A program made the position numbers and the translations under genes. A model generated the notes under the pieces. It ran no database searches. It worked only from the letters and a program-made list of their open reading frames with translations, and was not told where the DNA came from. This document shows positions 723 to 16,921 of a DNA stretch of 64,000 nucleotides, in pieces. The DNA comes from Desulfatiglandales bacterium. Lineage in GTDB: Bacteria; Desulfobacterota; DSM-4660; Desulfatiglandales; Desulfatiglandaceae. Location: assembly GCA_963666345.1 (NCBI GenBank), contig OY762721.1, positions 3,616,001 to 3,680,000 of the forward strand, written 5' to 3'. How positions within the stretch are numbered: the first letter of the stretch is position 1; each line of letters starts with the position of its first letter.

Positions 723-740
723 TTCCAAAGGGGGTAAAAA

Positions 741-1079: not shown

Positions 1080-1093
1080 AAAAAGGAGATGCC

Positions 1094-1843
1094 ATGTCAT
1101 TTCAATATAAAGTAGCGATTGTCACAGGTGGTGGAAGTGGAATCGGAAAGGCAATATGCAAAAAACTCTATGATGATGGTGCAAGTGTTGTGGTTGCTGA
1201 TATCTCACTGGATGGAGCTGATAAGGTTGTTTCAGAGTTGGCAGGAAATAACGGTAATGCCATTGGAATTAAAGTAGATGTCACAAAGTCTAAAGAGACA
1301 GAGGAGATGACACAAAAGGTTTTAGATAAATTTGGAAAAATTGATATTTTAGTAAATAATGTCGGAGGAACTCCTAGAGAAAAAGGCGGTCTTTTTCATG
1401 AATTGGAGGAAGGCATTTGGGATTGGCAGATAGATTTGAATTTAAAGTCAGTTCGAAACTGTACAAGGTCAATTATAGGACATATGATTGAAAGAAAAGC
1501 TGGGAAGATTGTTAACATTGCATCTGTTGCTGGTGTTAAGGGAACGCCGTCAAGAGTAGAATATTCAACTGCGAAGGCTGGCGTTATTGGTTTTACCATT
1601 GCTCTGGCGAAAGAAGTAGCTCAGTTTAATATAAATGTTAACTCTGTTTCACCTGGGCCTGTTGAAACCCCTCTTCTCAAGGCGGCTTCTTTGGAAAGAA
1701 GGGAAAACCTGCTAAATTCATTATATATAAAGCGATTTGGAGAACCTTGGGAAATAGCTGAAATGGTAGCGTACCTTGCATCAGAAAGCGCAGATTTTAT
1801 TACTGGACAAAACTATATCGTAGACGGAGGAAGAACGTTATAA
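1094..1843 (+). CDS. SDR family oxidoreductase (FabG-like)
   Basis: AGGAG RBS before ATG 1094; VAIVTGGGSGIG, YSTAK, ITGQNYIVDGG. Confidence 0.9.
   Translation: MSFQYKVAIVTGGGSGIGKAICKKLYDDGASVVVADISLDGADKVVSELAGNNGNAIGIKVDVTKSKETEEMTQKVLDKFGKIDILVNNVGGTPREKGGLFHELEEGIWDWQIDLNLKSVRNCTRSIIGHMIERKAGKIVNIASVAGVKGTPSRVEYSTAKAGVIGFTIALAKEVAQFNINVNSVSPGPVETPLLKAASLERRENLLNSLYIKRFGEPWEIAEMVAYLASESADFITGQNYIVDGGRTL
1124..1361 (+). repeat. 238-bp direct repeat, copy 2
   Basis: Near-identical to 3-240; similarity drops right after the NN codons. Confidence 0.95.
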
Positions 1844-2229
1844 AGTTAAATCAAAATAATTTGATAAGATAACATTTAAAATTAGATAAATAAGATAACC
1901 ATATATTAAAGGTTTGGAGAAGCGATGCCACCAGGATGGTTTATAGAGGCAAGGTAAAAATAGACTATGGTTCAAAAAAAGTCTATTTGAAGTGATTAGC
2001 ACCTTATTGGGGTATGGGTTATCTGACTCAATATCTGGGGAAGAAAAGGCTGGCTAAATGGAATAGTTAATGAAACTTAGAAAAAAAAGATTTTTGAAAC
2101 AAAACGATTGGATTTTCACTCTGTTTCAATTGATTAACAAACCAAATGGCCTAAAACCGGCAATCGTTAAATTAATTATGACAAAAAGTTATTTCATATT
2201 TTATGAAAATAAAATTGGTGGTGAGAAAA

Positions 2230-4152
2230 ATGAAGCTGTTTAAAAAAATAAATATCGGCCCTATGGAACTAAAGAACAGAATCGTAATGCCGGCAATGCA
2301 CACTGGCTTTGGTTCCGACGAAGGATACGTCACAGATAGGATGATACGCTATTATGAAGAAAGGGCAAAAGGAGGTGTAGCCTTAATCATTGTTGAATTT
2401 ACTGCTGTTGAAAGGAGAGGAAGATCTGCAACACATGAGCTATTAATTGATGATGACAAATATATTCCGATGCTAAGCAAGTTGGCCAGGGCAATACAGG
2501 GAAATGGAGCGAAAGCCTGTATACAATTGCATCATGGAGGAGGTAAAGTCACTGAAAGAGTAAGTAAGAATCAACCAATATGTCCATCGGTATTGGAAGA
2601 ATATAGAAATAACTATGGAAATAGACCTAGATTACTGACAAAGGGTGAGATTAGAAAATTAGTTTTGAGTTTTGGTGATGCTGCCGTAAGAGCAAAAGAA
2701 GCAGGGTTTGATTGTATTGAATTGCATTTTACCCATTCCTATCTAGTGGATCAATTTATATCTCCACGATTTAATAAAAGGAAAGATGCTTTTGGCGGAA
2801 ATATTGAAAACCGGATAAGGTTTGGATCTGAAATAATTGAGAATATAAGGAAAAGGGTAGGCAACTTTCCAATTATCTGTAGAGTTACAGGAAGCGACTA
2901 TATGAAAGGAGGAATAACAACTGAAGATGCTAAGGCAAACGCTGTTTTATTAGAACGGGCAGGTGCAGATTGCCTGCATGTCTCAGTTGGTATCTCAAAA
3001 AATGTTGTATCAACTCCCCCAATGTCGATTGAAAATGGATGTTTTGTATATCTGGCTCAACAGGTTAAAAAAGCTGTAAAACTTCCTGTTATCGCTGTAG
3101 GTAAATTAAGTGATCCTTGGCTAGCTGAAAAGGTAATAGTTGATAAAAAAGCTGATTGTATTGCTATCGGCAGAGGTTTAATTGCTGATCCCTTTTTACC
3201 GGAAAAGGTGGAAAATGGTGGAATTGAAGAAATTCAACAATGCCTCTATTGTAATCAAGGATGTATTTGCAAAGTTCTTGGAGGAGAGACTATAACCTGT
3301 GTTGTCAATCCATCTGTTGGGAAAGAAGATGCCTTTTCATATACTCAGTCTGATCATCCAAGAAGAGTACTAATAGTTGGCGGTGGACCTGCTGGAATGA
3401 AAGCTGCGATAGTTGCTAGAAGTAGAGGCCATGATGTTATATTGGCTGAAAGAAAAAGGGAATTAGGTGGTTTACTTAAATATGCAAATAGACCGCCCGG
3501 AAAAGATCAGTTTGATCAGTTGCGGATTGGGTTAATTAAGCAGATAAAGGAGTCAAAAATTGAGACGCATTTAAATCAAAATGTTGGTAAGGATTTTGTA
3601 GCCCAGATAAATCCAGATGTAATTGTTATGGCAACTGGATCTAAGCCTGTTATTCCGGTGATACCTGGGATAGAGGAAACCAAAATATACTTGCCTACTG
3701 AAATTCTGGAAATGGAACAAATCGATGCAAATTCGGCAATTATAATTGGAGGTGGCCAAACCGGTCTTGAAACTTCTGAATATCTTGCTCAAAAAGGACT
3801 GAAGGTAACAATATTGGAAATGTTATCAGAGGTTGGTGCGAATATACCCAAAAGAAATAGACAGGTTTTGTTAAATAGAATTGCTAAAGAAGAGATTAAA
3901 ATATGTGAAAATCGAAAAGTTACTGAAATCAACAAGAATGGCGTTTCCACGGTTCATTTTGGTAAGAGAGAAAAATATTATGGTGATATTTTGGTAGTGG
4001 CATCTGGAGCTAAACCTGAAAATGAATTGCTTGATGAATTGGAATCTATCTTACCCAAGCTAAAAAAATGTTTTCTAATAGGAGATTGTATTGAACCTAG
4101 AAGTGCCTTGGAAGCAATTTATGAGGGAGCTCTAGTGGGAATGGAAGTTTAA
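2230..4152 (+). CDS. NADH:flavin oxidoreductase (Old Yellow Enzyme family with 4Fe-4S and FAD domains, FadH/BaiCD-like)
   Basis: LKNRIVMPAM, RAKGGVALII, AGFDCIELH, CLYCNQGC Fe-S motif, GGGPAGM and GGGQTG Rossmann motifs. Confidence 0.88.
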   Translation: MKLFKKINIGPMELKNRIVMPAMHTGFGSDEGYVTDRMIRYYEERAKGGVALIIVEFTAVERRGRSATHELLIDDDKYIPMLSKLARAIQGNGAKACIQLHHGGGKVTERVSKNQPICPSVLEEYRNNYGNRPRLLTKGEIRKLVLSFGDAAVRAKEAGFDCIELHFTHSYLVDQFISPRFNKRKDAFGGNIENRIRFGSEIIENIRKRVGNFPIICRVTGSDYMKGGITTEDAKANAVLLERAGADCLHVSVGISKNVVSTPPMSIENGCFVYLAQQVKKAVKLPVIAVGKLSDPWLAEKVIVDKKADCIAIGRGLIADPFLPEKVENGGIEEIQQCLYCNQGCICKVLGGETITCVVNPSVGKEDAFSYTQSDHPRRVLIVGGGPAGMKAAIVARSRGHDVILAERKRELGGLLKYANRPPGKDQFDQLRIGLIKQIKESKIETHLNQNVGKDFVAQINPDVIVMATGSKPVIPVIPGIEETKIYLPTEILEMEQIDANSAIIIGGGQTGLETSEYLAQKGLKVTILEMLSEVGANIPKRNRQVLLNRIAKEEIKICENRKVTEINKNGVSTVHFGKREKYYGDILVVASGAKPENELLDELESILPKLKKCFLIGDCIEPRSALEAIYEGALVGMEV

Positions 4153-4206
4153 ATGTTTTTATAAAAAAATGCTGATATAGAAATTTGACAAAGTTTGGAG
4201 GACGAT

Positions 4207-5187
4207 TTGTACTATCCAAAATTGCGTTTGCGTCGATTAAGGAGAACTGAGAAGTTAAGAGGGCTTATAAGGGAAACAAGGGTATCCGTCAATGATATAA
4301 TCTATCCTCTTTTTGTGATCGAGGGTGATAATCTCAAAATGCCAATTTCAGCAATGCCTGATCAGTTTAGGTTTTCAATTGATTTGTTGTTGGAAGAAAT
4401 TGGACAAGTAGAAAAGGCGGGAATCCATGCAATAATACTATTTGGGTTACCCAAAGAGAAGGATGCAATCGGCTCTCAGGCATATGCGATAGATGGAATT
4501 ATACAAAGAGCACTTCGAAGCATAAAAAAGACATTTCCAGATATTGTCGTAATAACAGATGTTTGTTTGTGTGAATACACTGATCATGGCCATTGCGGTT
4601 TTATAAGAGATAATCAGATTGATAATGACGAGTCTACTAAGCTTTTAGCTGAAATCGCCTTGTCTCATGCACAGGCTGGGGCAGACATTGTTGCGCCTTC
4701 AGCTATGATGGATGGTCAAGTTGCCGAAATTAGGAAAAAATTAGATGAAAACGGTTTTCAAGAAACTGGAATAATGGCTTACTCGGCAAAATTTTCTTCG
4801 GCTTTCTATGGCCCTTTCCGGGAAGCTGCTGATTCATGCCCGAAATTTGGAGACAGGAAAAGTTATCAAATGGACATGGCAAACGGGAGGGAAGCCTTAA
4901 GGGAGGTTGAGTTAGATATAGCTGAGGGTGCTGATATGGTTATGATTAAGCCAGCACTCCCTTTTTTGGATGTAATTTATCGCGTCAGACAAATTTGCCA
5001 TTGTCCGATAGTCGCCTACAACGTCAGTGGTGAATATGCAATCATTAAGGCTGGAGGTTCAGCAAATTGGATTGACTATAAAGAAGCAATGTTAGAATGC
5101 ATGATATGTATCAAAAGGGCTGGTGCAGATCTAATTATTACCTATTTTGCCAAGGAATTAGCAAAATATCTGAATGAAGTAGAATAA
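4207..5187 (+). CDS. hemB: porphobilinogen synthase (delta-aminolevulinate dehydratase)
   Basis: RLRRLR N-terminus, DVCLCEYTDHGHCG Zn site, YGPFREAA, MIKPA, AYNVSGEY; TTG 4207 follows GGAGGA. Confidence 0.95.
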   Translation: MYYPKLRLRRLRRTEKLRGLIRETRVSVNDIIYPLFVIEGDNLKMPISAMPDQFRFSIDLLLEEIGQVEKAGIHAIILFGLPKEKDAIGSQAYAIDGIIQRALRSIKKTFPDIVVITDVCLCEYTDHGHCGFIRDNQIDNDESTKLLAEIALSHAQAGADIVAPSAMMDGQVAEIRKKLDENGFQETGIMAYSAKFSSAFYGPFREAADSCPKFGDRKSYQMDMANGREALREVELDIAEGADMVMIKPALPFLDVIYRVRQICHCPIVAYNVSGEYAIIKAGGSANWIDYKEAMLECMICIKRAGADLIITYFAKELAKYLNEVE

Positions 5188-5335
5188 ATAAACCTGGAAT
5201 ATTTTATAAATTGAATTATCTGATATAGATTGCAAATTGAAAAATTATTTAAGTTGTTTGATAAAAAAATATGCAAAGATATACGCAATAATAAGATGAT
5301 TTTAAAAGATCGAAATTGGTAAAAGGGCTTGGAGT

Positions 5336-6160
5336 ATGGCATTTTTACATATTGATAGGAAGAAATGTATTCAGGACGGTATTTGTGTTTCTGTCTGTCC
5401 TTCCCGTGTTATCCATATGAGACCAGAGGATGATTATCCTTCTGCTAAAAGGGAATTTGAAGAATTTTGCCTTAAATGTGGTCACTGTGTTGCGGTCTGT
5501 CCCTCTGGAGCTTTTAGTCTTGACTGGCTTTCACCTGAACAGTGTGAAGGCATTGAGGATATATTAAACATAACACCTGAGCAGGCTTGGCAATTTCTCT
5601 GTAAAAGACGATCCATCAGGAGATTCAAAAAAAATGCTGTCCCTCGATCTGTAATTTTTAACCTCCTTGAGGGGGCTTGTTTAGCTCCTTCAGCCAAAAA
5701 CCGGCAGCTCTGGCAGTGGGTTGTTGTAGAGAACCATTCAGAGGTTCAAAGGCTTGCCAATTTGGTTATCAGGTGGATGAAAAAAGTTATAAGAGAGAAT
5801 CCTAAACTTGCAAAAGAGAGAGGTTTTGAGCGTGCTGTTACCTTGTGGATGGAAGGAAATGACATTATTTGTCGAGGTGCACCTGATATCATAGTAGTTC
5901 ACGGCCAAAATGACTGGGGTTATGGGCCTGAGGACTGTGCCCTTGCTCTTAGCCAACTTAGTTTATATGCAACTAGTATGGGGCTGGGTTCCTGCTGGGG
6001 TGGGTATTTTTTTAAGGCAGTGAATTCTTATCTTCCTTTGTTCAAAGCACTAGATCTGCCTGAAGGCAATAGGGTTTTCGGAGCAATGATGGTGGGCTAC
6101 CCAAAATTTGAATATAGTCGTATTCCAGTACGCAATAAACCTCGTGTTAATTGGTTGTGA
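5336..6160 (+). CDS. nitroreductase family protein with N-terminal 4Fe-4S ferredoxin domain
   Basis: CIQDGICVSVCP and CLKCGHCVAVCP, RRSIRRF, APSAKN, GLGSCWGG. Confidence 0.88.
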   Translation: MAFLHIDRKKCIQDGICVSVCPSRVIHMRPEDDYPSAKREFEEFCLKCGHCVAVCPSGAFSLDWLSPEQCEGIEDILNITPEQAWQFLCKRRSIRRFKKNAVPRSVIFNLLEGACLAPSAKNRQLWQWVVVENHSEVQRLANLVIRWMKKVIRENPKLAKERGFERAVTLWMEGNDIICRGAPDIIVVHGQNDWGYGPEDCALALSQLSLYATSMGLGSCWGGYFFKAVNSYLPLFKALDLPEGNRVFGAMMVGYPKFEYSRIPVRNKPRVNWL

Positions 6161-6203
6161 TGCTCAATTCTAATAATTAGCGATACCTCTATTTTTATTT
6201 ATG

Positions 6204-6328
6204 CCTAGAAAACCCCGCCCTTTGGGTGGGGTGAGAGTAATTAGGCTTCGCCTGTAAAATGTTTTTGAAATCGCGGTGGCGAAGCCATGAATCGGGCGAA
6301 AAGCCATGGCCTCTGGCCGTGGATAGTC
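6204..6328. mobile_element. miniature non-autonomous IS200/IS605-like remnant (two end hairpins, no gene)
   Basis: AAACCCCGCCCTTTGGGTGGGG (~6209-6231) and AAGCCATGGCCTCTGGCCGTGG (6301-6322) resemble IS200/IS605 subterminal hairpins. Confidence 0.5.
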
Positions 6329-6415
6329 CGATTCAAGCGATTTCTTTACTTTATCTGAAAGTAAGATGTTAATTATAAAAATCATTTGTCATATAGATTG
6401 CTAGCTGGAGGAAAC

Positions 6416-7255
6416 ATGGGTAAAAGGATAATCATTACTGTGGCAGTTACAGGTTCCTTCCCGACTAAGGAAATGAATCCAGGGGTGCCTTATTCACCCA
6501 AAGAGATTGCAAAAGCGGCGGTTGAAAGTAATAAAGCTGGGGCATCTATTGCCCATATCCATGTTAGGGATCCTGAGACAGGAAAACCCGCATACGATAA
6601 AAAATTATTTAAAGAAGTCTTGGAACGTATCCGTGAAAAATGCAGCATGATAGTAAATTTGACAACAAGCGGTTTGAGGCTCACTGGCTCAGATGTTATC
6701 AAAAAGCGACTGCAACCAGTGGAACTTGAGCCTGAAATGTGCTCTTTGGACTTGGGTTCTATGAATTTCCATAATAAAGTATTCAATAACCCCCCTCAGT
6801 GGGGAGAGGAAGCTGCAAAAAGTATGCAGCGTGTTGGAGTAAAACCAGAGATAGAGGTATTTGAAGTAGGTCATATACGACAAGCCTTATACCTTATTGA
6901 ACAAGGATTTATAGATCCTCCACCATATTTTCAGCTCTGCATGGGTGTCAGATGGGGCATTGATGCTACAATTGAAAGCCTTCTTTTTATGAAAAGCAAA
7001 TTACCACCTGATGCACCATGGAGTGTCCTTGGTATTGGAGCGAGTCAAATACCCATGATCAACACTGGTATCCTTTTGGGGGGTAACATCAGGGTAGGCT
7101 TTGAGGACAATATTTACCTAGCAAAGAATAAGTTAGCTATTAATAATGCTCAAATGGTTGAAGTAGCAAGTGATTTAGCAGAACGTTTGGGAAGAAATGT
7201 TGTTGATGCCGATGAAGCGCGCGATATGCTAGGAATAAAAACGAATGGTGCCTAG
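6416..7255 (+). CDS. 3-keto-5-aminohexanoate cleavage enzyme family (BKACE/DUF849)
   Basis: [48 protein letters not shown] before ATG 6416. Confidence 0.9.
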
Positions 7256-7474
7256 AATTTTATCTATTTTTAGGTCAAGATATAGCAAATTCTAGGGTGC
7301 TTTTTAATGCTCTTTTTTAGTCAAGACCGATAGTTTATAATAATTAGGTTTTAAAAATAAGAATATAATTTGCAAGGATATTTTAAAAAAAGTTATATGA
7401 CCATGGCAAACGGAAAAAGTCATTATTTGCTTCTAAAGCGCATATGAGTTAAGTATTACCCAGGAGGGCTATTA

Positions 7475-7966
7475 ATGGAATATGATGGACGTTTAAAAGG
7501 AAAGAAAATACTAATAGTTGATGATGAGCCGGATGTATTGGCGACACTCGAAGAAATTCTAGATATGTGTGATTTAGTAAAATCAACCAATTTCGAAGAT
7601 TCAAAACGCTTAGTTGAGACCGAGAGCTATGATATCGTTATTCTGGATATTATGGGGGTTGACGGTTACAGGCTTTTAAATATTGCCAATAAAAGAAAAT
7701 TAACTGCTGTAATGCTAACTGCACATGCCTTAGACCCTGAAAATGCTGCTAAATCTTTTAATGAGGGGGCTTCATTCTATGTTCCGAAAGATAAGATTGG
7801 AAGCATTGCCAGTTATCTTGAGGACGTACTTGAAGCGAAAGAATCTGGTAAAAGTACTTGGTGGAGTTGGCTTGAGAGGATAGGAAACAATTATTTTGTA
7901 GACAGATTTGGGCCTAATTGGAAGGATCAGGACAAGGAGTTCTGGAAGAAACTTGATTATCACTAA
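7475..7966 (+). CDS. single receiver-domain response regulator with Trp-rich tail
   Basis: ILIVDDEPD, ILDIMG phosphoacceptor, MLTAH; paralog at 55787-56308. Confidence 0.85.
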   Translation: MEYDGRLKGKKILIVDDEPDVLATLEEILDMCDLVKSTNFEDSKRLVETESYDIVILDIMGVDGYRLLNIANKRKLTAVMLTAHALDPENAAKSFNEGASFYVPKDKIGSIASYLEDVLEAKESGKSTWWSWLERIGNNYFVDRFGPNWKDQDKEFWKKLDYH

Positions 7967-8039
7967 TCTGCAGTAGCTAAAATATGGTCGAAGCTTTTTG
8001 TTCTTCTTGAGTTTCTGAGCCGATTATATCTAGAAATTA

Positions 8040-8805
8040 TCAGCAATTTCCGGTTAGGTACTTGCATAAGGGTTTGAGTTTATTGAAGTCGGTTCCGATT
8101 ATTTCGGTAGAGCCTTCACGAAGCTCATTTTGGATTTGAATCCGAAGTTGTCGCACTCTCTTTATGCTGACTTTTTCGTTGTGCTGCTCGCAGCAGTAGA
8201 CGGAAAGCAGTATGTAGGTGATCAAACCGGCGAGTATTTGGGCCATCAAGCCATAGCGACTCCTGGCAATCAGATGGTAGACTCGAAGGTGGCGCTTCCA
8301 CCATCCGAAAAATTTCTCGATGTCCCATCTGAGCTTGTAGATGAAAGCAATTTGGTCAGCAGAAAGGTCGTATCGGCTTGTTGCAACCCAGTATTTTATG
8401 CCATCTACTACATATCCGACGACCCTGACAGGCTTTTTGGTCTGGTTGACTCCGGCGGTGCCGAGCAAGAGGATCGCATCGTAGAGACCACCGCCGTTAG
8501 GTTTGATCGGTTTGGCTTCAATGCAGGCTTTGCGTGTCTTGGCTTTGATACGGCATACAAAATGTTTTTTCTCCTCCTGCCATTGGTCAAACAGGTCGTG
8601 AGCCTTATACCCTAGGTCCAGAACACCTGTGTGCCCCGGAGAAAGAATCATTGAAACGAAGGGTCGTTGCGGGCCCTTGTCATCAGTGAGGAACACCTTG
8701 CGTGGAATCGAAAGGTTCAAGAGTCAAAGCCGATATGCACTTTGGCCTTCTTTGAGCCCTTTCTGTAGTCGGCCCGGTTCATTGAAAGCGATGCATCAAT
8801 CAATT
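8040..8805 (-). pseudogene. IS4-family transposase, 5'-truncated and frameshifted
   Basis: YKLRWDIEKFF (YREK-type motif); upstream frame LIDASLSM..DYRKGSKKAKVHIGFD joins by a frameshift near 8721; N-terminus missing. Confidence 0.8.
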
Positions 8806-8836
8806 ATCCGCCGATATCTAGTTTTTAGTGGCAATT

Positions 8837-8860
8837 TCTGTGTGAGAATCTGTGTGAGAA
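8837..8860 (+). repeat. tandem 12-bp direct repeat TCTGTGTGAGAA x2 (putative integrase arm-type sites)
   Basis: Exact duplication ~115 bp upstream of the tRNA fragment; the function is inferred. Confidence 0.6.
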
Positions 8861-8925
8861 AAACCTTCCAAAATCAGCAAAAACGTGGAAAATCTGCTAA
8901 AATCACTAAAAGTCAAAACCAATAA

Positions 8926-8938
8926 AATCAATTAGTTA
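8926..8938 (+). promoter_or_regulatory. IHF-binding consensus site
   Basis: AATCAATTAGTTA matches WATCAANNNNTTR; lies between the arm repeats and the att core. Confidence 0.55.
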
Positions 8939-8975
8939 AGTCTTTTGAGGAGGTTAGGAAACCAGGGGTTCATGG

Positions 8976-9020
<45 letters not shown>

Positions 9021-9028
9021 GTATTAGC

Positions 9029-9066
9029 AAAGGCTTTCACCGTATTAACGGCTGAAGGCTTTTTTT
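9029..9066 (+). terminator. rho-independent terminator after the tRNA fragment
   Basis: GCTTTCA-CCGT..ACGG-CTGAAGGC stem followed by a T run. Confidence 0.65.
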
Positions 9067-9346
9067 ATTTTATTGTCCATGAAAGCGCCTGTGTAATCAA
9101 ATTATAAAAATCCAGTTACAAACCAGCCTTAAAATAAAAACCCTCGATCTTTATCTTACGGATTTACCTTGTTAAATAATCAAAGCCTAACATCTTGACA
9201 AAAAGGGATATAAGTATGAACATGTCAAGCGTTCATTTATTTATGCTTGTCTGCATTAAATAAATACAATCGGAGGTATTCATTAGGCAATAAGACCCCG
9301 TTTCTTGGAAAGAGAGGTGGGGTTTTGTATTTTATAAGGATTAAAA

Positions 9347-10539
9347 ATGAACAATGCATTGTTTGAACAACTCCTATATGAAGAAGAAAGTAACACACTG
9401 GATTTTAAAGAAAAACAATATCGCTTTGCTAGGGCGACTAATGAAGAAAAGTCAGAGATTTTAAAGGACATTCTAGGTTTCGCAAATGCTTGGCGCCGAT
9501 CAGATGCCTACATTATCGTCGGTGTCAAAGAAATTAGGGGAGGGCGAAGCGTTGTCGTTGGCATATCAGCAAACGAGCATTTGGACGAGCATTCACTCCA
9601 GCAATTCGTTAATCACCTTACTAATCAACCAATTCATTTTAGCTATGAAGCATTTGGATTTGAGGGAAAACAGGTTGGGATAATCAAAATTGGTGCACAA
9701 AATCGACCCGTTTATCTCAGAAGAGACTATGGAAGGCTTAAAAAAGAAAAAGTCTTCATTCGCCGAGGAAGTTCAACAGATCCAACCAGCCCTGCATCGA
9801 TAGATGAAATAGCTATGATGCGCAGCCGTTTAGAAAATCTTCCCGCAGAATTACGTATCGAGTTTGCTCATGTAAATCGGGAAGAAGCGCTCGGAACAAA
9901 AATTGATTTGGAGACTGAGTTTTGTGAAATGCCCGAAAAAAACAGCATCCCTGACTTATCAGATCAGCAAAACCAAAATCCATTTGAAATAGGGATACCT
10001 CGTCTTAGTGATTTTATGATAAATATTAATAAAGATTATTTTCGTGAATTAGCTGATTATAAATCCAATCAATGTTGGTTCAAGCCTGTCCGTTTAGTAA
10101 TAACAAACGTAGGACACCTTGCAGCTAAAAAAATATTAGTCGAAGTGACAGTACCTATAGAATCGGGGGTAATTCTGCTTGATCAAGACGATATGCCTGC
10201 CCCCCCCAAATGCATTATGATTTTTCTGACATTACCGCTATCAAAAGTAATGTGTTCTCCAATCGCAGTCCAGGTGACATTGTTATCGAGCACAATGAAA
10301 AGCAGTATAAAATTGAAATTGACTGTGGCGATCTTCAACCCGGACGCCGAATTTTTTCAGATTTTATATATATTGGGAAGATGATTAGCGGAAATTTTTG
10401 TCTGTTTGGTTTATTGTACGCCGATAATCTTCCTAGTCCAAAGGAATTTGAGCTTAATGTAGCGGTAGAGGTTACTACAACATCCATGACAGTCGATGAA
10501 TTATGTTCCCTATCTGAAAAAGCAAATAAAGACGAATAG
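9347..10539 (+). pseudogene. Schlafen/AlbA_2-domain protein, split by a frameshift at a C8 tract
   Basis: EESNTLDFKE..KDILGFANA..GV motif and RRGSST; ORFs 9347-10384 and 10210-10539 fuse if one base is added at 10200-10210. Confidence 0.75.
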
Positions 10540-10577
10540 AGCTATCCAACTATTTGATGACACAGCCATCCATATAC

Positions 10578-10700
10578 GGCTAAACACGGCTGAGCCGGCA
10601 GATGGAAAATGCCTAGCCTTTTTTTGAGGTGGATCATCGCTAAAGCAAATCGGATCTGACAATCTTCGAACTATTCCAACGCCTGATCTTTGCGTTAGGA
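10578..10700 (+). other. attC-like integron recombination site (degenerate)
   Basis: GGCTAAAC (R''-like) ... CCTGATCTTTGC-GTTAGGA (R' GTTRRR-like), ~123 bp, ending 20 bp before the next start codon. Confidence 0.45.
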
Positions 10701-10719
10701 AAGCAAAGTGTGTTTTCAT

Positions 10720-13700
10720 ATGAGCCAACTATTTAACATAGATAAATCGTTCATTAAAGCCGTTGATGATGTGACGGCCCGGGAACTTGTTGCAAGATTA
10801 TGTCGTGCAGAGCTAAGAGGCCAAGGGCTTCCCGAATCTGCTGTAACTTGGGGTGGTGATCAACGAGCCAAAGATGGTGGCGTCGATGTGCTCGTGGACT
10901 GTCCCAGCCCGCTTTGGGAGCCGGACTTCGTCAAGACGTCCCACACCGTATTTCAGGTCAAGGCGGAGTCATTCCCACCCTCAAAAATTAAAGAGGAGAT
11001 GGCTCCGGATGGCACTCTACGGCCAGCCATCGCGGAACTCCAAGAAACTCGTGGTTCCTATATCATAGTTTCGACCAAAGATGATGATACTTACTTGGCC
11101 TTAAAGCCAAGACGCGATGCTATCCATAACTGCCTCAGTGACCATGGTCTAGGCACCTCTGTTCAATCTGACTTCTACGACAGCCGACGTCTTGCTGATT
11201 GGGTAGAACAGCATCCTCAAATTGCAGCATGGCTTAGGCACAAGATAGGCGAGCCAATTAAGGGTTGGCGCCCCTACGGCGCCTGGGCCTACGATGAGCA
11301 CGATCTTGAGGCAGAGTACCTCATTGATGATCAAGTTAGAGTTTTCGTGCCAAATGCCGATGAGGGATGGTGTATAGAGGATGCAATCGCACAGATGCGG
11401 CAGGAATTAAAGCAAAGAGTTTCGATTAGGATTGTCGGTCTGTCTGGTGTTGGTAAAACAAGACTTGTGCAGGCCTTGTTTGATTCACGTGTGTGTCCTG
11501 ATTCCGCCGTCCCATCGTCCGAGAATGTCTTCTATGTCGATCTCGCTGATGAACCTGAACCACAACCACAAACGATGCTGAACACTTTGCAGGATCGCCT
11601 ATCAGATTCGATCGTTATAATTGATAATTGCAGCCCAGAAACTCATAAACAACTGATTGAAATCATCAAGCGTAATGGTAGCAAACTGAAGCTAATCACC
11701 ATAGAATATGACATTCGCGATGATTTACCTGAAAGCACGCTTTGCTACCGGCTGGAAGGCTCGTCCCCCGAGATTATCACAAAGCTCTTGAAGGTCCGAT
11801 ATGAAAATCTTTCAAATAATGATGTGAAACGCATAGCCGAATTTTCTAATGGCAATGCTCGCATGGCTTTTGCACTGGCATCAAACGTTGAGACAGGGGG
11901 GGAACTCTCGAGTTTGCGAGACCGAGACCTCTTCGATCGAGTGTTTCAGCAAAAGAATGATCCAAATGATGAGCTACTGCGTTGCGCACAAGCTGCGAGC
12001 CTTCTTTATTCATTTGATGGTTCTGATCAATCTGAAAATGGAGAGATTTCGCAACTTTGCGGTTTCGCAGAAGTAACGCCTTTGGCTTTTTCAAGGAACA
12101 TAGCGGAGCTAGAAAGCCGTGGCTTATTGCAGAAACGGGGGCGATGGCGGGCTCTTTTACCCCATGCGATAGCAAATGGCTTGGCGATACGTATGCTCCG
12201 ATATCTGCCTTGGGATCGTTTATATGATGTGCTCATCAAACATGGCGGTGAGCGGATCGCTCGATCATTCAGCAAGAGGTTGGGCTTTCTACACGATTGC
12301 CCGGAAGCAGTGCGGATGGCATCGCGAATGCTTGCTGGCGATGGAATGCTTGGGAATTTGATGTTGCTAACCGATTTTGAGCAGCAAATGTTTGTGAATC
12401 TGGCACCTGTAGATCCTGGAGGAGCATTGGCCGCTATCAGGCGTGCATCGGAGAATAAAAACTTTCTATCGACATACAACAGTTCCCGAGCGCGATTTGC
12501 CCGTGTTGCACGATTAATTGCCTATTATCCTACTTATTTCGATGAAGCAGTATCGATCCTAATTATATTCGCCTTGGCTGAACCGGAGGACTACCATTAC
12601 GAACCCGTTCGAGATATTTTGAAATCACTGTTTTTTTGTAGTCTATCGGGTACGAAGGCAAGTCCTGGGCAGCGACATGAAGTGGTTAAAAACCTCTTTT
12701 TAACAGATGGCAAAAAGGAGCACGAGCTTGGATTTGATTTGATACATGCTGGACTAGAGACTTCGCATTTCAGCACGCACTACGGTTTTGAGTTTGGTGC
12801 GAGACGACGAGATTATGGGTGGCATCCGCGATTCCAGGCTGACATAAAAGATTGGTTTCAACCATGGATTGAAATAATTACTACCATCGGGGAGCAGGAT
12901 AATGAGGATGGCTCCAAAGCGCGGACTATGCTGGGAGAAGCATTACCAGGCCTCTGGCGAGTAGGACTTGATGATGAGTTGGTTGATGCTGCGAAATTTT
13001 TACGGCCCATAGATGGCTGGCCCGAAGGATGGTTGGGTGTGCGGAGAATACTGCATTGGGGTGCAGATCAGCTTTTGCCACCATCGCTTGGCCAATTGAG
13101 AAAACTCGAGAAGACACTTAAACCTTCTGATTTAATGTCTGAGATTCGTGCGCGTCTCCTTGCACATGGCTCATTTGCTTATGATATTGAAATCGAAGAT
13201 GAGCTTGAAGTTGAAGATCGCGAACCAGTTTCAGCATCTGGGAAGATCCAAAAGTCGCGGTTGAAAGCTGAGAAGCTTGGTGCTAAGGCAGCCATTTCAC
13301 CCCCGCTAATAGAAGTTCTAATTCCAGATCTTATTTCCACGGGCTGCAGCGCTGTGATCTACAACTTTGGCTTGGGAATCGGAAGGCATCATAATGATAT
13401 GGCTGGACTGTTGCAGGCTGTGCGGACCCATATCGAACGTATTGACTCTCGCGATCTGAGCCTGATCTGGGTGAGAGGTCTGATAGCAGGATGGAAGGAG
13501 ACTAATCCCGACGCTGTCGAATCTTTCTTGGATGGCGCAATCGATGATGTTGTATGGCGCGTTTGGTTTGTTGAGCTTCAATGTCAGGCAAGTCTTAATA
13601 CGAGAGCCTTTCATCGTCTTGTTCGAGTGCTAGATTCGAGGCATTGCCCGACGGGGCAATTCGGGTATCTTGCCTTAGGTCGTGTGACAGACCCTCTAAC

Positions 13701-14568
13701 TGTTTCACAGATTATGGAGCTATCAAAAAAATTGACGTTGAGACCCGACCATGGCCTATTAACAGCAATTGAGCTTCTTTCTATGGTTATTCACTGTTTA
13801 GACAAAAAAAATGATCAGTATAAAGACGAACTTGCCAAGGCGCTTTTAGAGTTTCTTGGCTACGTAGACTGGTCACTCTTGAACGAAGACAATGCAAAGA
13901 TGGACTATGATCTTCACGTTGTTTTGGAGTTTTCCTTGAAGTCGGCCAAATCTGTGGATAATATCGCCCCGATACTCAGAAGTATACTGCAAACGTTTGA
14001 TAACGATCAGCTACGTTACGACCAAGCTAGAAAGATTATTCTGAAGCTATTTTTTACGTATTTCCCGAAACTTGCATTGGAAATGATTTGCGTGCCGGAT
14101 GAAGATGGAACATTTCAACGGTTAGAGGAACTCGTCTCCGATGTACACTCAGACCGGAATGAAACAATCCTCGGAGTCGTCTCAAAAGATGCTTTAATTG
14201 ATTGGTGCAATGAAAAGCCGGATACTCGCTATTCGTTTGTTGCAAGTACCTGTAAATTGTTTGATAAGCAAGATGATGAAAAAATGTCTTTAACAATTTC
14301 TGACACCGCCAGGGCTCTTTTGGAAGCGGCCCCAAACAAGACGACCGTTATTAAGAAATTTGTCATACGTTTTTATCCGAGCGGTTGGTCTGGTTCACTC
14401 GCAGGCATTCTTGAAAAGAGGCTTCCCTTACTCGATTATTTGGCTATTAGTGGTGATGAAACTGTAAATCTGGAAATTGAGTCCGCTAAAGCAAAACTCC
14501 AAAACTACATTGATACGGTTAGAAAGCGTGAAACGAAGGAAGAGTCACAAAATTTAAGTTTTGAGTAA
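10720..14568 (+). CDS. large putative PD-(D/E)xK nuclease + STAND-like P-loop NTPase + helical C-terminal domain protein
   Basis: N-terminal DGGVD..FQVK, Walker A GLSGVGKT, Walker B IVIIDNC, long Leu/Ala-rich C-terminus; ~1282 aa. Confidence 0.7.
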   Translation: MSQLFNIDKSFIKAVDDVTARELVARLCRAELRGQGLPESAVTWGGDQRAKDGGVDVLVDCPSPLWEPDFVKTSHTVFQVKAESFPPSKIKEEMAPDGTLRPAIAELQETRGSYIIVSTKDDDTYLALKPRRDAIHNCLSDHGLGTSVQSDFYDSRRLADWVEQHPQIAAWLRHKIGEPIKGWRPYGAWAYDEHDLEAEYLIDDQVRVFVPNADEGWCIEDAIAQMRQELKQRVSIRIVGLSGVGKTRLVQALFDSRVCPDSAVPSSENVFYVDLADEPEPQPQTMLNTLQDRLSDSIVIIDNCSPETHKQLIEIIKRNGSKLKLITIEYDIRDDLPESTLCYRLEGSSPEIITKLLKVRYENLSNNDVKRIAEFSNGNARMAFALASNVETGGELSSLRDRDLFDRVFQQKNDPNDELLRCAQAASLLYSFDGSDQSENGEISQLCGFAEVTPLAFSRNIAELESRGLLQKRGRWRALLPHAIANGLAIRMLRYLPWDRLYDVLIKHGGERIARSFSKRLGFLHDCPEAVRMASRMLAGDGMLGNLMLLTDFEQQMFVNLAPVDPGGALAAIRRASENKNFLSTYNSSRARFARVARLIAYYPTYFDEAVSILIIFALAEPEDYHYEPVRDILKSLFFCSLSGTKASPGQRHEVVKNLFLTDGKKEHELGFDLIHAGLETSHFSTHYGFEFGARRRDYGWHPRFQADIKDWFQPWIEIITTIGEQDNEDGSKARTMLGEALPGLWRVGLDDELVDAAKFLRPIDGWPEGWLGVRRILHWGADQLLPPSLGQLRKLEKTLKPSDLMSEIRARLLAHGSFAYDIEIEDELEVEDREPVSASGKIQKSRLKAEKLGAKAAISPPLIEVLIPDLISTGCSAVIYNFGLGIGRHHNDMAGLLQAVRTHIERIDSRDLSLIWVRGLIAGWKETNPDAVESFLDGAIDDVVWRVWFVELQCQASLNTRAFHRLVRVLDSRHCPTGQFGYLALGRVTDPLTVSQIMELSKKLTLRPDHGLLTAIELLSMVIHCLDKKNDQYKDELAKALLEFLGYVDWSLLNEDNAKMDYDLHVVLEFSLKSAKSVDNIAPILRSILQTFDNDQLRYDQARKIILKLFFTYFPKLALEMICVPDEDGTFQRLEELVSDVHSDRNETILGVVSKDALIDWCNEKPDTRYSFVASTCKLFDKQDDEKMSLTISDTARALLEAAPNKTTVIKKFVIRFYPSGWSGSLAGILEKRLPLLDYLAISGDETVNLEIESAKAKLQNYIDTVRKRETKEESQNLSFE

Positions 14569-14871
14569 CTGACGGGAATTTGGATAGTCGAACATAATGG
14601 GAAAATATAATCAAGGCGCCCGGAAGGTTAATTTAATGGTCAGAAATAAGCACTAAGCAGATTAACCGACAAAGAATTAGTCGGTAGATTTTAACCCCCC
14701 TCCCTCATCATAGATATCCTTTGAAATTAAAACAAATAGAATAAAGAGTGTGCGATATTGCCAGAAGCTGTTCTATTTTCTTGCGCGCGACTTATCGCGC
14801 AAAATAAATCCGGTGGGTTTGTCGTGGAATTTCGGGAGTTCCACGACTACCTCCCTTTAGGGGCGCGGTAA

Positions 14872-15189
14872 TTCCCGGATATTTTCTTCATCCAGACCTA
14901 CCATGCGGCAGATAACCCATATTTTCTTTCCGCTATCACCCCCAGCCTGAACCAGGGCTTTGTCCTCTATCATGGCAGACCCACCGGGATCGAAGCCTAT
15001 GAAGAGGAAGGCTATATCCACTTAAAGAAGTACCTTAGAAGGAAAACAAGACCTGACGTCACAGTTACCTTTAAAGATGGCAGTACGTTTAAGAGCATCC
15101 GGGAAAACCCTCTTATCCTTGACTATTTGAAAAATGCTAAGGGCCTGCCTGGAAGGCAGATCCTTAAGATCGAAGGCTATGGTGAGTAG
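14872..15189 (+). pseudogene. 5'-truncated gene remnant of unknown function
   Basis: Stop-free frame of ~105 codons (DIFFIQTYHAADNPYF...KIEGYGE*) with no start near its 5' end; not in the ORF track. Confidence 0.5.
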
Positions 15190-15661
15190 GAAGCATGGGA
15201 TTGATCGGTTTTTCTGAAAATAGCAGCATGCGCCTCAAGTGCTTTCTTTTGCAATATATCATTAAGGTAAATGTAACATTATAAGTTTGCTACAAATTGG
15301 ATTTTTGAAATGGATGATATTTTCAATCTTTGGAAATACACCCCAAATGAATTAGCAGGAAAACCACGCATGCTTTGTCCATAATCCCTTATGGTTTAGG
15401 ATACCAAGCTATCGTCTGATTTATGTTTTTTATATTGTTTAAAATGCTTAGGAATGGTCTTAGTTTAGATTTAAAAAAAACCAAAGGAAAAATATTTCCT
15501 TGACATATTATAACATGTACTATAGTGTACGATCATGATATCATTTCATGCTGAAAAAAGTGCTATATGGTCTCCTGCTTTTTCCAAGAATGATAGAAGC
15601 GCAGTATTTTTATAAATCCTTAATAACAGGATTCGGTAGGCATAATTATGGAGGGAAAACT

Positions 15662-16921
15662 ATGAAGGGCAAGAATGTTATACTGATCACAATGGATGAA
15701 GTGCGCCATGACCATTTGAGTTGTTACGGATACACTAGAATAAATACTCCAAATTTGGACTATTTTGCGCATGATGGTGTCCTTTTTGAAACGGTCGCTT
15801 CTACAACCTGCTTTACTCCGATCAGTCATGCCACAATTTTGACGGGAGTTTACCCTAGTAAACACAATATGAGGGATCCTTTTTCTATGCCTGAATGGAA
15901 AATGATATCGGAAATTTTCAAGGAAAATGGATACGCTACAGCCGGTTTTGTTGGAGTTAATCTTATTGGGAAGGCAAACGGTTTTGACAAAGGTTTCCTG
16001 ACATTTGATGAACCTAAGCATGAAGAGGTCTGGAAAATTTCAGACTTTGCTGGAGATGATAGAGGTGAACTACTTTGGGGTAATTGGTGGATTCCACGTA
16101 TGCTGGAGTGGGTTAGATTTGTGGATAAACCGTTTTTCATATGGTGCCACTATTTCGATGTGCATCAAGCTGCAGAGAATATTTTATTGGAACTAGGTAA
16201 GATCAAGGAAGGAGTCATGCCCGAATACGGCTACTATGATCCAAAAATTGAATATATGGATAAGGCATTTTTCGGTCCTTTAAGGGAAGTGCTTTCCGAC
16301 CTTCAAATCGAAGATGAAACTACAGTTTTGATTACCTCTGACCACGGTACGAATCTTGAAGAACACGAGGTCCCTCCTTTCCCTCATCTGGATTTGGTCT
16401 ATCCACAGCATACAACTATGTATGATTGTGACTTGTTAGTCCCTCTTATTATAAAAGATATGGACGTCCCCAAGAATAAAGTGATCCCAGGAATGGTCCG
16501 AACAGTAGATATAGTGCCAACCTTACTCGATCTGGCGGGCATGGCTATTCCTGATGACTTAGATGGGGTATCGTTATGCTCATTTATTAAAAATGGAAAG
16601 GCGGAAGGACTGCTGGCATATGCTGAGGAGCTTTATGAGAAAAGAGGGCCAGGGGATTTTCAGGCAATTCGTGATGATTTGCATAAGTATATAATAGATC
16701 ATCGGAATGGTGGGCAGGAAGAATTTTACGATATAAAATCAGATCCAGTCGAGAAAACCAATTTAATGGATTCTTTATCAAAAAACCAAGAAAATATTTT
16801 AACGAATTGGAGAAATATTTGCGAAGAATACAGACCTCGAAAAGATTCTACTTTTAAAATGGACAATGAGGTAAAGGAAAAACTAACAGAAAGATTACAA
16901 ATGCTTGGATATATAGAATAA
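15662..16921 (+). CDS. sulfatase-like hydrolase (alkaline phosphatase superfamily), non-canonical motif
   Basis: NVILITMDEVR, TPISHATILTG, HYFDVH, SDHG, C-terminal LQMLGY; GGAGG RBS before ATG 15662. Confidence 0.85.
   Translation: MKGKNVILITMDEVRHDHLSCYGYTRINTPNLDYFAHDGVLFETVASTTCFTPISHATILTGVYPSKHNMRDPFSMPEWKMISEIFKENGYATAGFVGVNLIGKANGFDKGFLTFDEPKHEEVWKISDFAGDDRGELLWGNWWIPRMLEWVRFVDKPFFIWCHYFDVHQAAENILLELGKIKEGVMPEYGYYDPKIEYMDKAFFGPLREVLSDLQIEDETTVLITSDHGTNLEEHEVPPFPHLDLVYPQHTTMYDCDLLVPLIIKDMDVPKNKVIPGMVRTVDIVPTLLDLAGMAIPDDLDGVSLCSFIKNGKAEGLLAYAEELYEKRGPGDFQAIRDDLHKYIIDHRNGGQEEFYDIKSDPVEKTNLMDSLSKNQENILTNWRNICEEYRPRKDSTFKMDNEVKEKLTERLQMLGYIE

Follow-up and report, generated by a model that had tools for sequence, protein, structure and literature searches.

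Two genes that run in the same direction lie directly after a fragment of a tRNA-Arg gene in the genome of a Desulfatiglandales bacterium, and they raise the question of whether they make up one anti-phage system or two, and whether either belongs to a type that has been described. The window analysed is one continuous stretch of 64,000 nucleotides; positions below refer to it unless a genome position is given. The first-pass annotation, made from the sequence alone, had placed two co-directional genes after a tRNA-Arg att fragment, and the listing of open reading frames bears this out. The locus very probably consists of two unrelated single-gene defence modules, an intact and divergent Avs8A and a broken copy of a Schlafen/AlbA_2 gene (Table 1). 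Nothing in the window itself is categorically new; the locus, though real, is for the most part ordinary. A more open lead comes from the widespread family to which the broken gene belongs, a Schlafen domain with a preserved catalytic-type motif joined to a beta-sandwich.

Table 1. Features of the locus, in window coordinates, with the basis of each assignment
Feature	Position	Strand	Basis
IS4-type DDE transposase gene fragment	8040..8720	-	Pfam DDE_Tnp_1, E 2.4e-14, profile positions 76-200 of 200
tRNA-Arg(ACG) 3'-end direct repeat, 48 nt	8976..9023	+	47/48 bases identical to genome 3559412-3559459
sRNA-like element, five copies in the genome	9194..9336	+	-35-like box, two hairpins, T run
Frameshifted Schlafen/AlbA_2 + beta-sandwich gene	9347..10539	+	PF04326 and alignment A1
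C8 homopolymer at the AlbA_2 break point	10200..10207	+	sequence and frame arithmetic
Avs8A (PD-lambda-4_A) homologue, 1282 aa, intact	10720..14568	+	PADLOC PDLC03991, E 9.7e-268
N-terminal effector region, residues 1-205	10720..11334	+	presumed Mrr-type PD-(D/E)xK-like motif D52-G-G-V-D56 ... Q79-V-K81
STAND-type P-loop NTPase region, residues 206-420	11335..11979	+	Walker A G240-LSGVGKT-R248, Walker B D302-N-C304, G378-N-A-R381
C-terminal sensor region, residues 421-1282	11980..14565	+	alignment with E. coli Avs8A and the PADLOC profile runs to the C-terminal end
Gene 3'-end remnant	14887..15192	+	87% identity over 306 nt to a 263-aa gene, genome 2939360-2940151

The Avs8A homologue and its expected mode of action

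Judged by its sequence, the large protein is a full-length, divergent member of PD-lambda-4_A, that is, Avs8A. In PADLOC the PD-Lambda-4_A profile aligns, over positions 3-1277 of 1283, with residues 8-1281 of a 1286-aa ORF (10708-14568), in which a GTG at 10708 provides an alternative start four residues upstream of the one adopted in Table 1. A BLASTP alignment with the E. coli protein is colinear from residue 4 to residue 1264, with 30% identity over 1281 aligned columns (E 7e-172), and the reading frame has no internal stop. The two proteins are of near-equal length (1282 aa here, 1283 aa in E. coli) and have the motifs DGGxD...QxK, GLSGVGKTR, DNC and GNAR in common. The E. coli sequence used for comparison is the copy in NZ_CP065152.1 (locus L012), where PD-Lambda-4_A is found at 2517.8 bits with PD-Lambda-4_B downstream; the characterised system is that of ECOR07. 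No other Avs model in PADLOC, including those of the Avs1-4-type families, matched the large protein at E ≤ 0.1. Searches elsewhere gave little: nothing useful from NCBIfam, P-loop matches only from sequence and profile searches of the PDB, and one weak partial match from a search of genome contigs with the protein as lone query.

The motifs quoted in the first-pass annotation for the second gene (DGGVD, FQVK, GLSGVGKT and IIDN) are all present, and its proposal of an effector-STAND-sensor build of the Avs type agrees with the full-length match to Avs8A. It had also held that the protein could not be assigned to a named type, and this is overturned. PADLOC, one of the checks it suggested, returns a full-length match to a described system, so the large gene is not novel.

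Conservation differs among the three regions of the protein. In the effector region, 33.8% identical to that of E. coli Avs8A, all 29 aligned homologues, E. coli included, have D52, G54, D56, Q79 and K81 (alignment A2), and the region is presumed to be a Mrr-type PD-(D/E)xK-like nuclease. The first 230 residues match no Pfam family even at E ≤ 1, and none of the 29 family members matches a Pfam nuclease family at E ≤ 0.01. The Walker A, Walker B and GNAR motifs of the NTPase region are likewise invariant in the 29 sequences. This region is 42.3% identical to its E. coli counterpart, and its Pfam matches, to nSTAND6, AAA_16, AAA_22 and NACHT, are all weak and sub-threshold. Pfam searches with all 29 members likewise gave weak P-loop matches only. 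The sensor region is 26.1% identical to that of E. coli, and many of its positions are invariant across the 29 sequences. The stretch of about 800 aa that the first-pass annotation took for a probable helical sensor is colinear to its end with the sensor of E. coli Avs8A.

Other Avs (AVAST) families, for example Avs1-4, carry Mrr-like or other effectors and sense terminase or portal proteins. Avs8 is like them in joining an effector, a STAND NTPase and a repeat sensor, and in recognising a conserved phage protein with a single protein. It differs in its reported target, which is the major capsid protein and not terminase or portal (10.64898/2026.01.04.697583). In the passages drawn on here, one study of the E. 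coli protein describes Avs8A as a single-protein Mrr-nuclease/STAND sensor of the HK97 major capsid protein. Avs8A alone is reported there to give full defence against lambda, Avs8B being dispensable; it binds gpE with a Kd of about 127 nM, the capsid protein triggers Mg- and ATP-dependent cleavage of dsDNA, and active-site mutants lose defence (10.1101/2025.07.02.662641). Sensing of the major capsid protein by Avs8 has been reported independently by a second group (10.64898/2026.01.04.697583). From models and assays, the corresponding passages of both preprints place binding on the A-domain of the HK97 capsid protein and describe recognition of diverse capsid proteins of low identity through their common fold (10.1101/2025.07.02.662641; 10.64898/2026.01.04.697583). 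Tetramer-type activation has been reported for Avs3/4 and predicted by modelling for Avs8A (10.1101/2025.07.02.662641). Capsid-protein activation, ATP-dependent dsDNA cleavage and phage protection are documented for the E. coli protein and for the homologues that the two preprints screened. The description of PD-lambda-4 followed here is that of these two preprints; the passages of Vassallo et al. 2022 (PMC9519451) drawn on do not carry that name.

What has been published on E. coli Avs8A allows a trigger, an oligomerisation step and DNA cleavage to be proposed for the homologue in the window. Its homology to a characterised protein suggests that it most likely acts alone. During infection, the C-terminal, repeat-like sensor would bind newly made HK97-fold major capsid protein in its monomeric form. 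ATP-dependent assembly, probably of a tetramer, would follow, driven by the STAND NTPase, after which the N-terminal Mrr-type nuclease would degrade phage and host double-stranded DNA, with abortive infection as the outcome.

The window protein shares 30% of its residues with the characterised one overall and 26% in the sensor, so the trigger could differ. The protein might belong to the Avs8 family and yet respond to something other than the HK97 capsid protein, or its N-terminal region might do something other than cleave DNA, a reading that would fit both the divergent sensor and the lack of any nuclease family detectable in Pfam. It is unlikely, as the protein can be aligned colinearly with both the profile and E. 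coli Avs8A almost to its C-terminus, the nuclease motif and many sensor positions are invariant across the 29 sequences, and Avs8 is reported to recognise diverse capsid proteins of low identity through their common fold. A copy this distant could help to ask how far capsid-fold recognition tolerates divergence of the sensor.

The E. coli Avs8 locus has Avs8B downstream, whereas here there is none, either downstream or elsewhere in the genome. The PD-Lambda-4_B profile (PDLC03992) has no match in this genome at E ≤ 1, and phmmer with E. coli Avs8B finds none among the six-frame ORFs of the 64-kb window. Since Avs8B is reported to be dispensable, its absence has no bearing on the membership of protein A. 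Among the other Avs8A-type loci examined, 26 in number, only two have Avs8B, one being the E. coli reference locus and the other a viral contig, and this confinement to a few loci is consistent with the reported dispensability. The neighbourhood comparisons cover these 26 loci, outside which lie the close Avs8A homologues of 58-71% identity.

The family is rare among the sampled genomes of the lineage from which this divergent member comes. Among 41 relatives examined, this genome alone has the gene. Six of 401 genomes in a sample of the phylum match Avs8A at E ≤ 1e-20, and two of the 401, this genome included, match the profile from end to end. The gene would appear, from such sequence comparisons, to be of horizontal origin.

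The broken Schlafen/AlbA_2 gene and its family

The first gene had been called Schlafen/AlbA_2, with a hint of a frameshift, and both points hold. The first ORF (9347-10384, plus strand) encodes 345 aa, of which residues 14-146 match the Pfam family SLFN_AlbA_2 (PF04326) with a score of 60.5 bits, well over the threshold of 25.3 (E 2.9e-16). Homology ends at about position 10210. The C-terminal part of the protein is found in a second ORF of 109 aa (10210-10539), in frame +2 (alignment A1), and the gene is therefore frameshifted. The two pieces align to residues 1-303 and 286-399 of the homologue P0002 with 51-59% identity. The change of frame falls at the C8 run and fits one base lost or two gained. 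A slip in this run probably truncates the copy, which for that reason is probably inactive.

The break could instead be something other than a dead end, either an error common to the assemblies or, if the C8 run acts as a reversible phase-variable switch, one of two states of the gene. It lies exactly within a homopolymer of a slip-prone type, and apart from it the protein is well preserved in both halves and in its catalytic-like motif. The break is identical in 5974-nt contigs from two sequencing runs, which show zero differences over 9300-10800 at depths of 7.75 and 17.2, although both runs come from one sample, from which the assembly may itself derive, and contigs hide rare variants. No RNA run was listed in a search of sequencing runs. 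A run of seven or more G or C residues occurs in none of 80 homologous AlbA_2 genes, so the family does not conserve the C8 tract, and the genome as a whole holds 97 G or C runs of eight or more. Set against this evidence, an error or a switch is quite improbable, and a silencing slip is the reading preferred here.

The family itself is large, with 689 homologues of the AlbA_2 ORF counted as cluster representatives. Among the best homologues listed, most are 387-400 aa long and 51-62% identical over 79-100% of the ORF. In intact members, of about 398 aa, the motif E-x4-D-x-K falls in a Schlafen-like domain, after which comes a beta-sandwich domain. An alignment of 34 full-length homologues shows no variation at E14 and K21 and at least 90% conservation at D19, and the copy in the window keeps E14...D19-F-K21. 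The predicted structure of P0002 (pLDDT 79.3) resembles the AlbA_2 structures 2kyy and 3lmm in its N-terminal domain (Z 9.4) and generic beta-sandwiches in its C-terminal part (Z 8-10). An ESM Atlas search with the C-terminal part returned unnamed clusters only, at 0.90 or below.

Two described groups come close to this family. CbCash and other prokaryotic Schlafen nucleases likewise carry an N-terminal Schlafen/AlbA_2 domain and occur in defence islands, and the spacing of the E-x4-D-x-K motif is equal to that of E17/D22/K24, given as the catalytic residues of CbCash in the passages drawn on (PMC13462974). The family differs from CbCash in having a predicted beta-sandwich as its C-terminal part in place of the Csx15/CARF-like sensor, and no type III CRISPR link was seen in the loci examined. 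The PADLOC candidate PDC-S50 has the AlbA_2 domain in common with it (the window ORF matches at E 8.8e-20, intact homologues at 1e-19 to 7e-22). Membership of PDC-S50 was rejected, since neither the window ORF nor any of three intact homologues aligns with more of its 387-position profile than positions 7-162; over the C-terminal two thirds the proteins are unlike, and this is a different family with a common domain. PADLOC has no model that treats the Schlafen + beta-sandwich family as a separate system, and no experimental report on the family was found in the literature searched.

The first-pass annotation had suggested scoring the neighbourhoods of homologues for defence genes, and these are indeed enriched. 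Defence genes account for 37 of 148 neighbour ORFs (25 of 54 loci) against 4 of 73 control ORFs (Fisher p 3.6e-4), figures that leave out 17 of 165 selected neighbour ORFs on grounds of size and should be read with the knowledge that the loci are related (among them one CBASS-linked subclade), that the control comes from one genome, and that PADLOC includes ATPase and methyltransferase models of a generic kind. The neighbours include Thoeris, CBASS, restriction-modification and AbiE genes. An obligate link to CBASS was considered and rejected: the five CBASS-adjacent copies form one subclade, and a close relative has Thoeris neighbours.

The domain by itself would make an RNA (tRNA) nuclease effector with a beta-sandwich regulator or sensor the likely role of the family. 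A fuller proposal, tentative and rather less than even in its chances, is that the family is an uncharacterised, stand-alone abortive-infection nuclease in which a phage cue detected by the beta-sandwich would set free a Schlafen domain that cleaves RNA (tRNA). On that proposal the copy here would have been recently silenced, or would possibly be switchable, beside an independent Avs8 sensor.

Relationship between the two genes

Whether the locus held one two-gene system or two single-gene systems had been left as alternatives, of which the second has stood up. An Avs8A gene is found in none of 80 loci of AlbA_2 homologues, a count that is weak for short contigs, since at least 3 kb of downstream sequence is available in only 18 of 76 loci. 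In the other direction, the AlbA_2 family is found in none of the 26 other Avs8A-type loci (0/10 and 0/16 in two sets). A conserved AlbA_2-Avs8A operon was rejected on these two results. That the Schlafen-like protein replaces Avs8B as the partner of Avs8A, or serves as a second effector, is highly improbable: the genes are adjacent and co-directional, only 180 nt apart, Avs8 was originally defined as a two-gene operon (10.1101/2025.07.02.662641, in the passages drawn on), and both types of gene are found in defence contexts, but co-occurrence in the loci examined is nil from either side, G+C content is 0.37-0.39 in one gene and 0.46 in the other, the AlbA_2 copy is frameshifted, and E. coli Avs8A works alone.

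Position beside the tRNA-Arg repeat

The presence of a tRNA att site had also been claimed, and here the picture is mixed. The 48-nt repeat is real and marks an integration hotspot. The window itself holds no tRNA gene according to ARAGORN, Rfam finds no tRNA in 8500-15600, and the two genes lie just outside the element concerned. The repeat has the same orientation as the intact tRNA-Arg(ACG) gene at genome 3559380-3559456, and the match can be extended to 66 nt at 90.9% identity. A tyrosine integrase adjoins this intact tRNA gene (L014:3561-4868). The repeat is the distal, attR-like end of an integrated element of 65.5 kb, whose tRNA-proximal end is at genome 3559456. The AlbA_2 and Avs8A genes are thus not within the element bounded by the tRNA repeat; they are directly downstream of the original 3' end of tRNA-Arg(ACG), at a tRNA integration hotspot.

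The pairing of a cytidylyltransferase gene with tRNA-Arg is conserved in relatives, as a synteny comparison indicates. The right-hand border of the foreign DNA is not fixed by synteny, the downstream genes in four relatives mapping elsewhere in this genome. The gene remnant that follows Avs8A matches no Pfam family. At the other side, the IS4-type transposase fragment is the final gene of the 65.5-kb island.

The sRNA-like element is situated directly upstream of the AlbA_2 start. It matches no Rfam family, and none of its 31 pairs covaries (alignment A6). The sole terminator-like site within 8900-15600 is inside this element, and its four further copies in the genome are 81-86% identical to it.

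An Avs8 protein in the window

The large gene of the locus (see the table) encodes an Avs-type, NLR-like defence protein of a described and mechanistically studied family, Avs8 (PD-lambda-4). Residues 8-1281 of the 1286-aa product match positions 3-1277 of the 1283 in the PADLOC PD-Lambda-4_A profile (E 9.7e-268), and no other Avs model of PADLOC is listed for it at E <= 0.1. The first-pass annotation had recognized the Avs-like kind correctly and had found the protein impossible to assign to a named type; the full-length match now supplies that assignment. The motifs it had read, DGGVD, QVK, GLSGVGKT and IIDN, are all present in the translation.

Features of the locus and of related sites (window positions unless marked)
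Feature	Coordinates	Remark
tRNA-Arg(ACG), intact	genome 3559380-3559456	
Integrated element, 65.5 kb	genome 3559457-3625023	three stretches left of the window (L014-L016) plus window 1-9023
Tyrosine integrase gene	L014:3561-4868	directly after intact tRNA-Arg(ACG)
42-nt repeat	L014:2700-2741 (genome 3558700-3558741)	just upstream of a cytidylyltransferase-like gene
Response-regulator gene	7475-7966	left boundary of locus
IS4-type transposase gene fragment	8040-8720	minus strand
tRNA piece	8976-9023	
~140-nt element, window copy	9194-9336	
~140-nt element, other copies	genome 3096916-3097057, 3100487-3100627, 1360029-1360171, 3774637-3774780	third copy on minus strand
Schlafen/AlbA_2 ORF	9347-10384	345 aa
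C8 run	10200-10207	
Second ORF	10210-10539	109 aa; other frame than Schlafen/AlbA_2 ORF
1286-aa ORF (Avs8A)	10708-14568	
G7 run	11896-11902	within Avs8A gene
Stretch without long ORF		~1 kb, 3' of 1286-aa ORF
Remnant of 263-aa ORF	14887-15192	last ~100 codons, 87% identical
263-aa ORF, full copy	genome 2939360-2940151	
Sulfatase gene	15548-16921	right boundary of locus

An E. coli reference locus (NZ_CP065152.1), reached via an Enterobacter plasmid homologue, encodes a 1283-aa protein scoring 2517.8 bits on PD-Lambda-4_A, followed by a 303-aa PD-Lambda-4_B (Avs8B). Aligned with the E. coli protein over residues 4-1264, the window protein is 30% identical to it (E 7e-172); by region, identity is 33.8% (1-205), 42.3% (206-420) and 26.1% (421-1282). 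Among 29 aligned homologues, including those of E. coli, Enterobacter, Bacillus and Rhizobium (numbering from ATG 10720), D52, G54, D56, Q79 and K81 are invariant, as are the Walker A stretch G240-LSGxGKTR, D302-N303-C304, G378-N379-x-R381 and numerous residues in the C-terminal region. No stop codon interrupts the reading frame. Two starts are candidates: GTG 10708, with a GGA-rich stretch 7 nt upstream, and ATG 10720, which yields the family consensus N-terminus MxxIF. The gene contains a slippage-prone G7 tract, in frame and without a break.

Residues 1-230 have no Pfam match at E <= 1, none of the 29 aligned proteins matches a nuclease family at E <= 0.01, and PDB sequence and profile searches returned P-loop matches alone, with E of 0.05 or more. 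Support for a putative Mrr-type nuclease in the N-terminal domain therefore comes from the conserved motif and two preprints. In these, PD-lambda-4 is renamed Avs8, and Avs8A is reported to combine a Mrr-family nuclease at its N-terminus with a STAND NTPase (10.1101/2025.07.02.662641; 10.64898/2026.01.04.697583). The first describes protection against lambda by Avs8A alone equal to that of the two-gene operon, so that Avs8B is dispensable; binding of lambda gpE (Kd about 127 nM) and of other HK97-fold capsid proteins; Mg- and ATP-dependent degradation of linear dsDNA after capsid binding; loss of defence in active-site mutants; and modelling that favours a tetramer (10.1101/2025.07.02.662641). 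A second group counts Avs8 as one of three families that wrap around the capsid protein's A-domain (10.64898/2026.01.04.697583). By homology, the window's Avs8A would sense capsid protein, cleave DNA in an ATP-dependent manner and defend against phage.

The Avs8A gene occurs in one of 41 relatives, the carrier being this genome; across 401 genomes of the phylum six match at E <= 1e-20, only two of them end to end on the profile. Matches were found in 46 PLSDB plasmid records (28 cover at least 80% of the protein, all at under 60% identity), relatives are encoded on 16 viral contigs, and in a large protein collection 2707 of 7999 scored candidates match at E <= 0.001, the top one with 71% identity. 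The Avs8B profile (PDLC03992) has no match in this genome at E <= 1, and phmmer with the E. coli Avs8B as query found none in the window, one among the 16 viral-contig loci and, among six other loci, only the E. coli locus from which the query came.

A broken Schlafen-like gene

The gene upstream was correctly called Schlafen/AlbA_2 from its sequence: it matches PF04326 and belongs to a family found in defence islands, but this copy is broken. At E <= 0.001, 689 of 2579 candidates are homologous to the 345-aa ORF; the best 120, mostly of 387-400 aa, are 51-62% identical to it over 79-100% of the ORF. In their alignment (A1) the ORF tracks the homologues to ...DMPAPPK and diverges thereafter, and the 109-aa ORF (frame +2) aligns to the last ~95 columns. 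In a genome search the two pieces correspond to residues 1-303 and 286-399 of an intact homologue, P0002. The frames join at the C8 run, and the change is compatible with one base lost or two gained. Logan contigs from two runs, each of 5974 nt (depths 7.75 and 17.2), show no differences over 9300-10800, so an error in the deposited assembly alone does not account for the break. Both runs are from one sample, which may be the assembly's source, and such contigs cannot reveal rare length variants. G or C runs of 7 or more are found in none of 80 homologous AlbA_2 genes; this genome contains 97 runs of 8 or more.

Only the N-terminal part of the family is recognized: PF04326 matches, PADLOC PDC-S50 matches the window ORF and three intact homologues at positions 7-162 of 387, and NCBIfam has no match. 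An AlphaFold model of P0002 was made with 34 sequences (mean pLDDT 79.3). Its residues 1-162 resemble AlbA_2 structures, with Z 9.4 for both 2kyy (rmsd 3.9 over 128 residues) and 3lmm (rmsd 3.4 over 137). Residues 163-381 have many beta-sandwich or Ig-like matches (Z 7-10; best YcnI, Z 9.9), a common arrangement that says little about function. Across 34 homologues E14 and K21 never vary and D19 is conserved in at least 90%, and all three are kept in the window copy. The E-x4-D-x-K spacing is that of catalytic E17, D22 and K24 in CbCash, a Schlafen nuclease of prokaryotes that cuts tRNAs in the T-loop; the same paper also lists, near restriction-modification systems, Schlafen clusters whose C-terminal domains are unknown (PMC13462974). 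The literature searched held no experimental report on the Schlafen plus beta-sandwich family. Of 401 genomes of the phylum, three match P0002 at E <= 1e-30, and past the AlbA_2 domain the match is confined to this genome.

The neighbourhoods of homologues are enriched in defence genes, something the first-pass annotation had proposed looking for. From 80 metagenome loci, less four near-duplicates, neighbouring ORFs of at least 140 aa and no more than 3 kb away were taken (165 in 60 loci); 148 from 54 loci were scanned against PADLOC at E <= 1e-8, leaving out 17. Matches were obtained for 37 of the 148, in 25 loci. They include restriction-modification (six loci), CBASS genes directly upstream of the AlbA_2 gene (five), Thoeris ThsA/ThsB (three), AbiE (two) and PDC-S02 (two), with LmuB, DUF4238-Pers, a PD-T4-6-like kinase and others. 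The control, ORFs of the window and the 65.5-kb element, gave 4 of 73, all generic ATPase, WYL or HNH models (Fisher test, p 3.6e-4, with related rather than independent loci and a control from one genome).

The CBASS-adjacent copies (loci L070, L075, L078, L084 and L087) form a subclade, 70-94% identical to one another, in which the AlbA_2 gene directly follows the CBASS genes; a close relative (L081) has Thoeris neighbours instead. Among the ORFs scanned, cyclase and 4TM effector both lie upstream in L070, L078 and L087, L075 has the cyclase only, and one locus has the effector only. The gap between effector and AlbA_2 gene in L070, L078, L084 and L087 is 23-28 nt, or a 4-nt overlap, which suggests co-transcription.

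Two unrelated genes

The first-pass annotation had left open one two-gene system or two single-gene systems. The evidence argues against one system. The Avs8A alignment has no match in the 80 AlbA_2 loci (hmmsearch), although only 18 of 76 extend 3 kb or more downstream. In reverse, hmmsearch with the AlbA_2 alignment found that family in none of ten Avs8A-type loci (five clear end-to-end Avs8A, one unscanned plasmid locus, four weaker relatives), and hmmsearch likewise found it in none of the 16 viral-contig loci. The G+C contents also differ: the two AlbA_2 pieces have 0.39 and 0.37, while Avs8A has 0.46 and its flanks 0.37-0.40. The Schlafen-like gene belongs to a separate family, is broken, and is unrelated to Avs8A. 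The proposed kinds of gene and the tRNA hotspot thus stand, but the family of the large protein was already described and its neighbour is a damaged, independent gene.

The tRNA-Arg integration site

The arrangement of a Schlafen/AlbA_2 gene and a large STAND gene after a tRNA fragment, noted at first reading, is confirmed. The window covers positions 3616001-3680000 of the genome, a single 4.16-Mb contig with G+C 0.48. ARAGORN calls no tRNA gene in the 64-kb window and Rfam finds none in 8500-15600; in the whole genome there are 47 genes for tRNAs and one for tmRNA. The fragment equals the 3' end of tRNA-Arg(ACG) at 47 of 48 bases in the same orientation, and the match reaches 66 nt at 90.9%. 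Because it repeats the tRNA 3' end and an integrase lies by the intact tRNA, the fragment is the distal, attR-like end of an integrated element, 65.5 kb long, that lies between tRNA-Arg(ACG) and the 48-nt repeat. The element carries the tyrosine integrase, three identical IS21 copies (IstA 505 aa, IstB 243 aa), genes for three HNH endonucleases and one BglII-like endonuclease, a regulator of the WYL/WCX type, a C10 peptidase and an extensive metabolic cargo: TRAP transporters, flavin oxidoreductases and BKACE enzymes.

When an element integrates at a tRNA 3' end, the DNA past the distal repeat is what immediately followed the tRNA gene before integration. By this usual logic both the AlbA_2 and Avs8A genes sit in DNA once adjoining tRNA-Arg(ACG). 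G+C is low (0.35-0.45) from ~3560000 to ~3642500, on either side of the fragment, so the part to the right is possibly an older island. In relatives tRNA-Arg and its upstream gene are kept in place; the genes downstream of it in four relatives map elsewhere in this genome. G003, a relative from another genus, has its own pair, an intact tRNA-Arg (C1:1872168-1872248) and a 53-nt repeat (C1:1881916-1881968) 9.7 kb apart; the site is therefore a recurrent integration hotspot.

Several smaller repeats were also observed. The full copy of the 263-aa ORF, which is without known family and whose end remains in the window, adjoins a gene for a PDDEXK_4 nuclease and a further copy of IS21. The five-copy ~140-nt element consists of a TTGACA box, an AT-rich hairpin, a 14-bp GC-rich hairpin and a T run; it matches no Rfam family, covariation was seen in none of 31 pairs, and one copy adjoins an integron-integrase-like ORF. 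It resembles a gene for a small RNA or a cassette of promoter and terminator. The 42-nt repeat recurs at ~18 other places in the genome (88-95% identity) and looks like a REP-like dispersed repeat.
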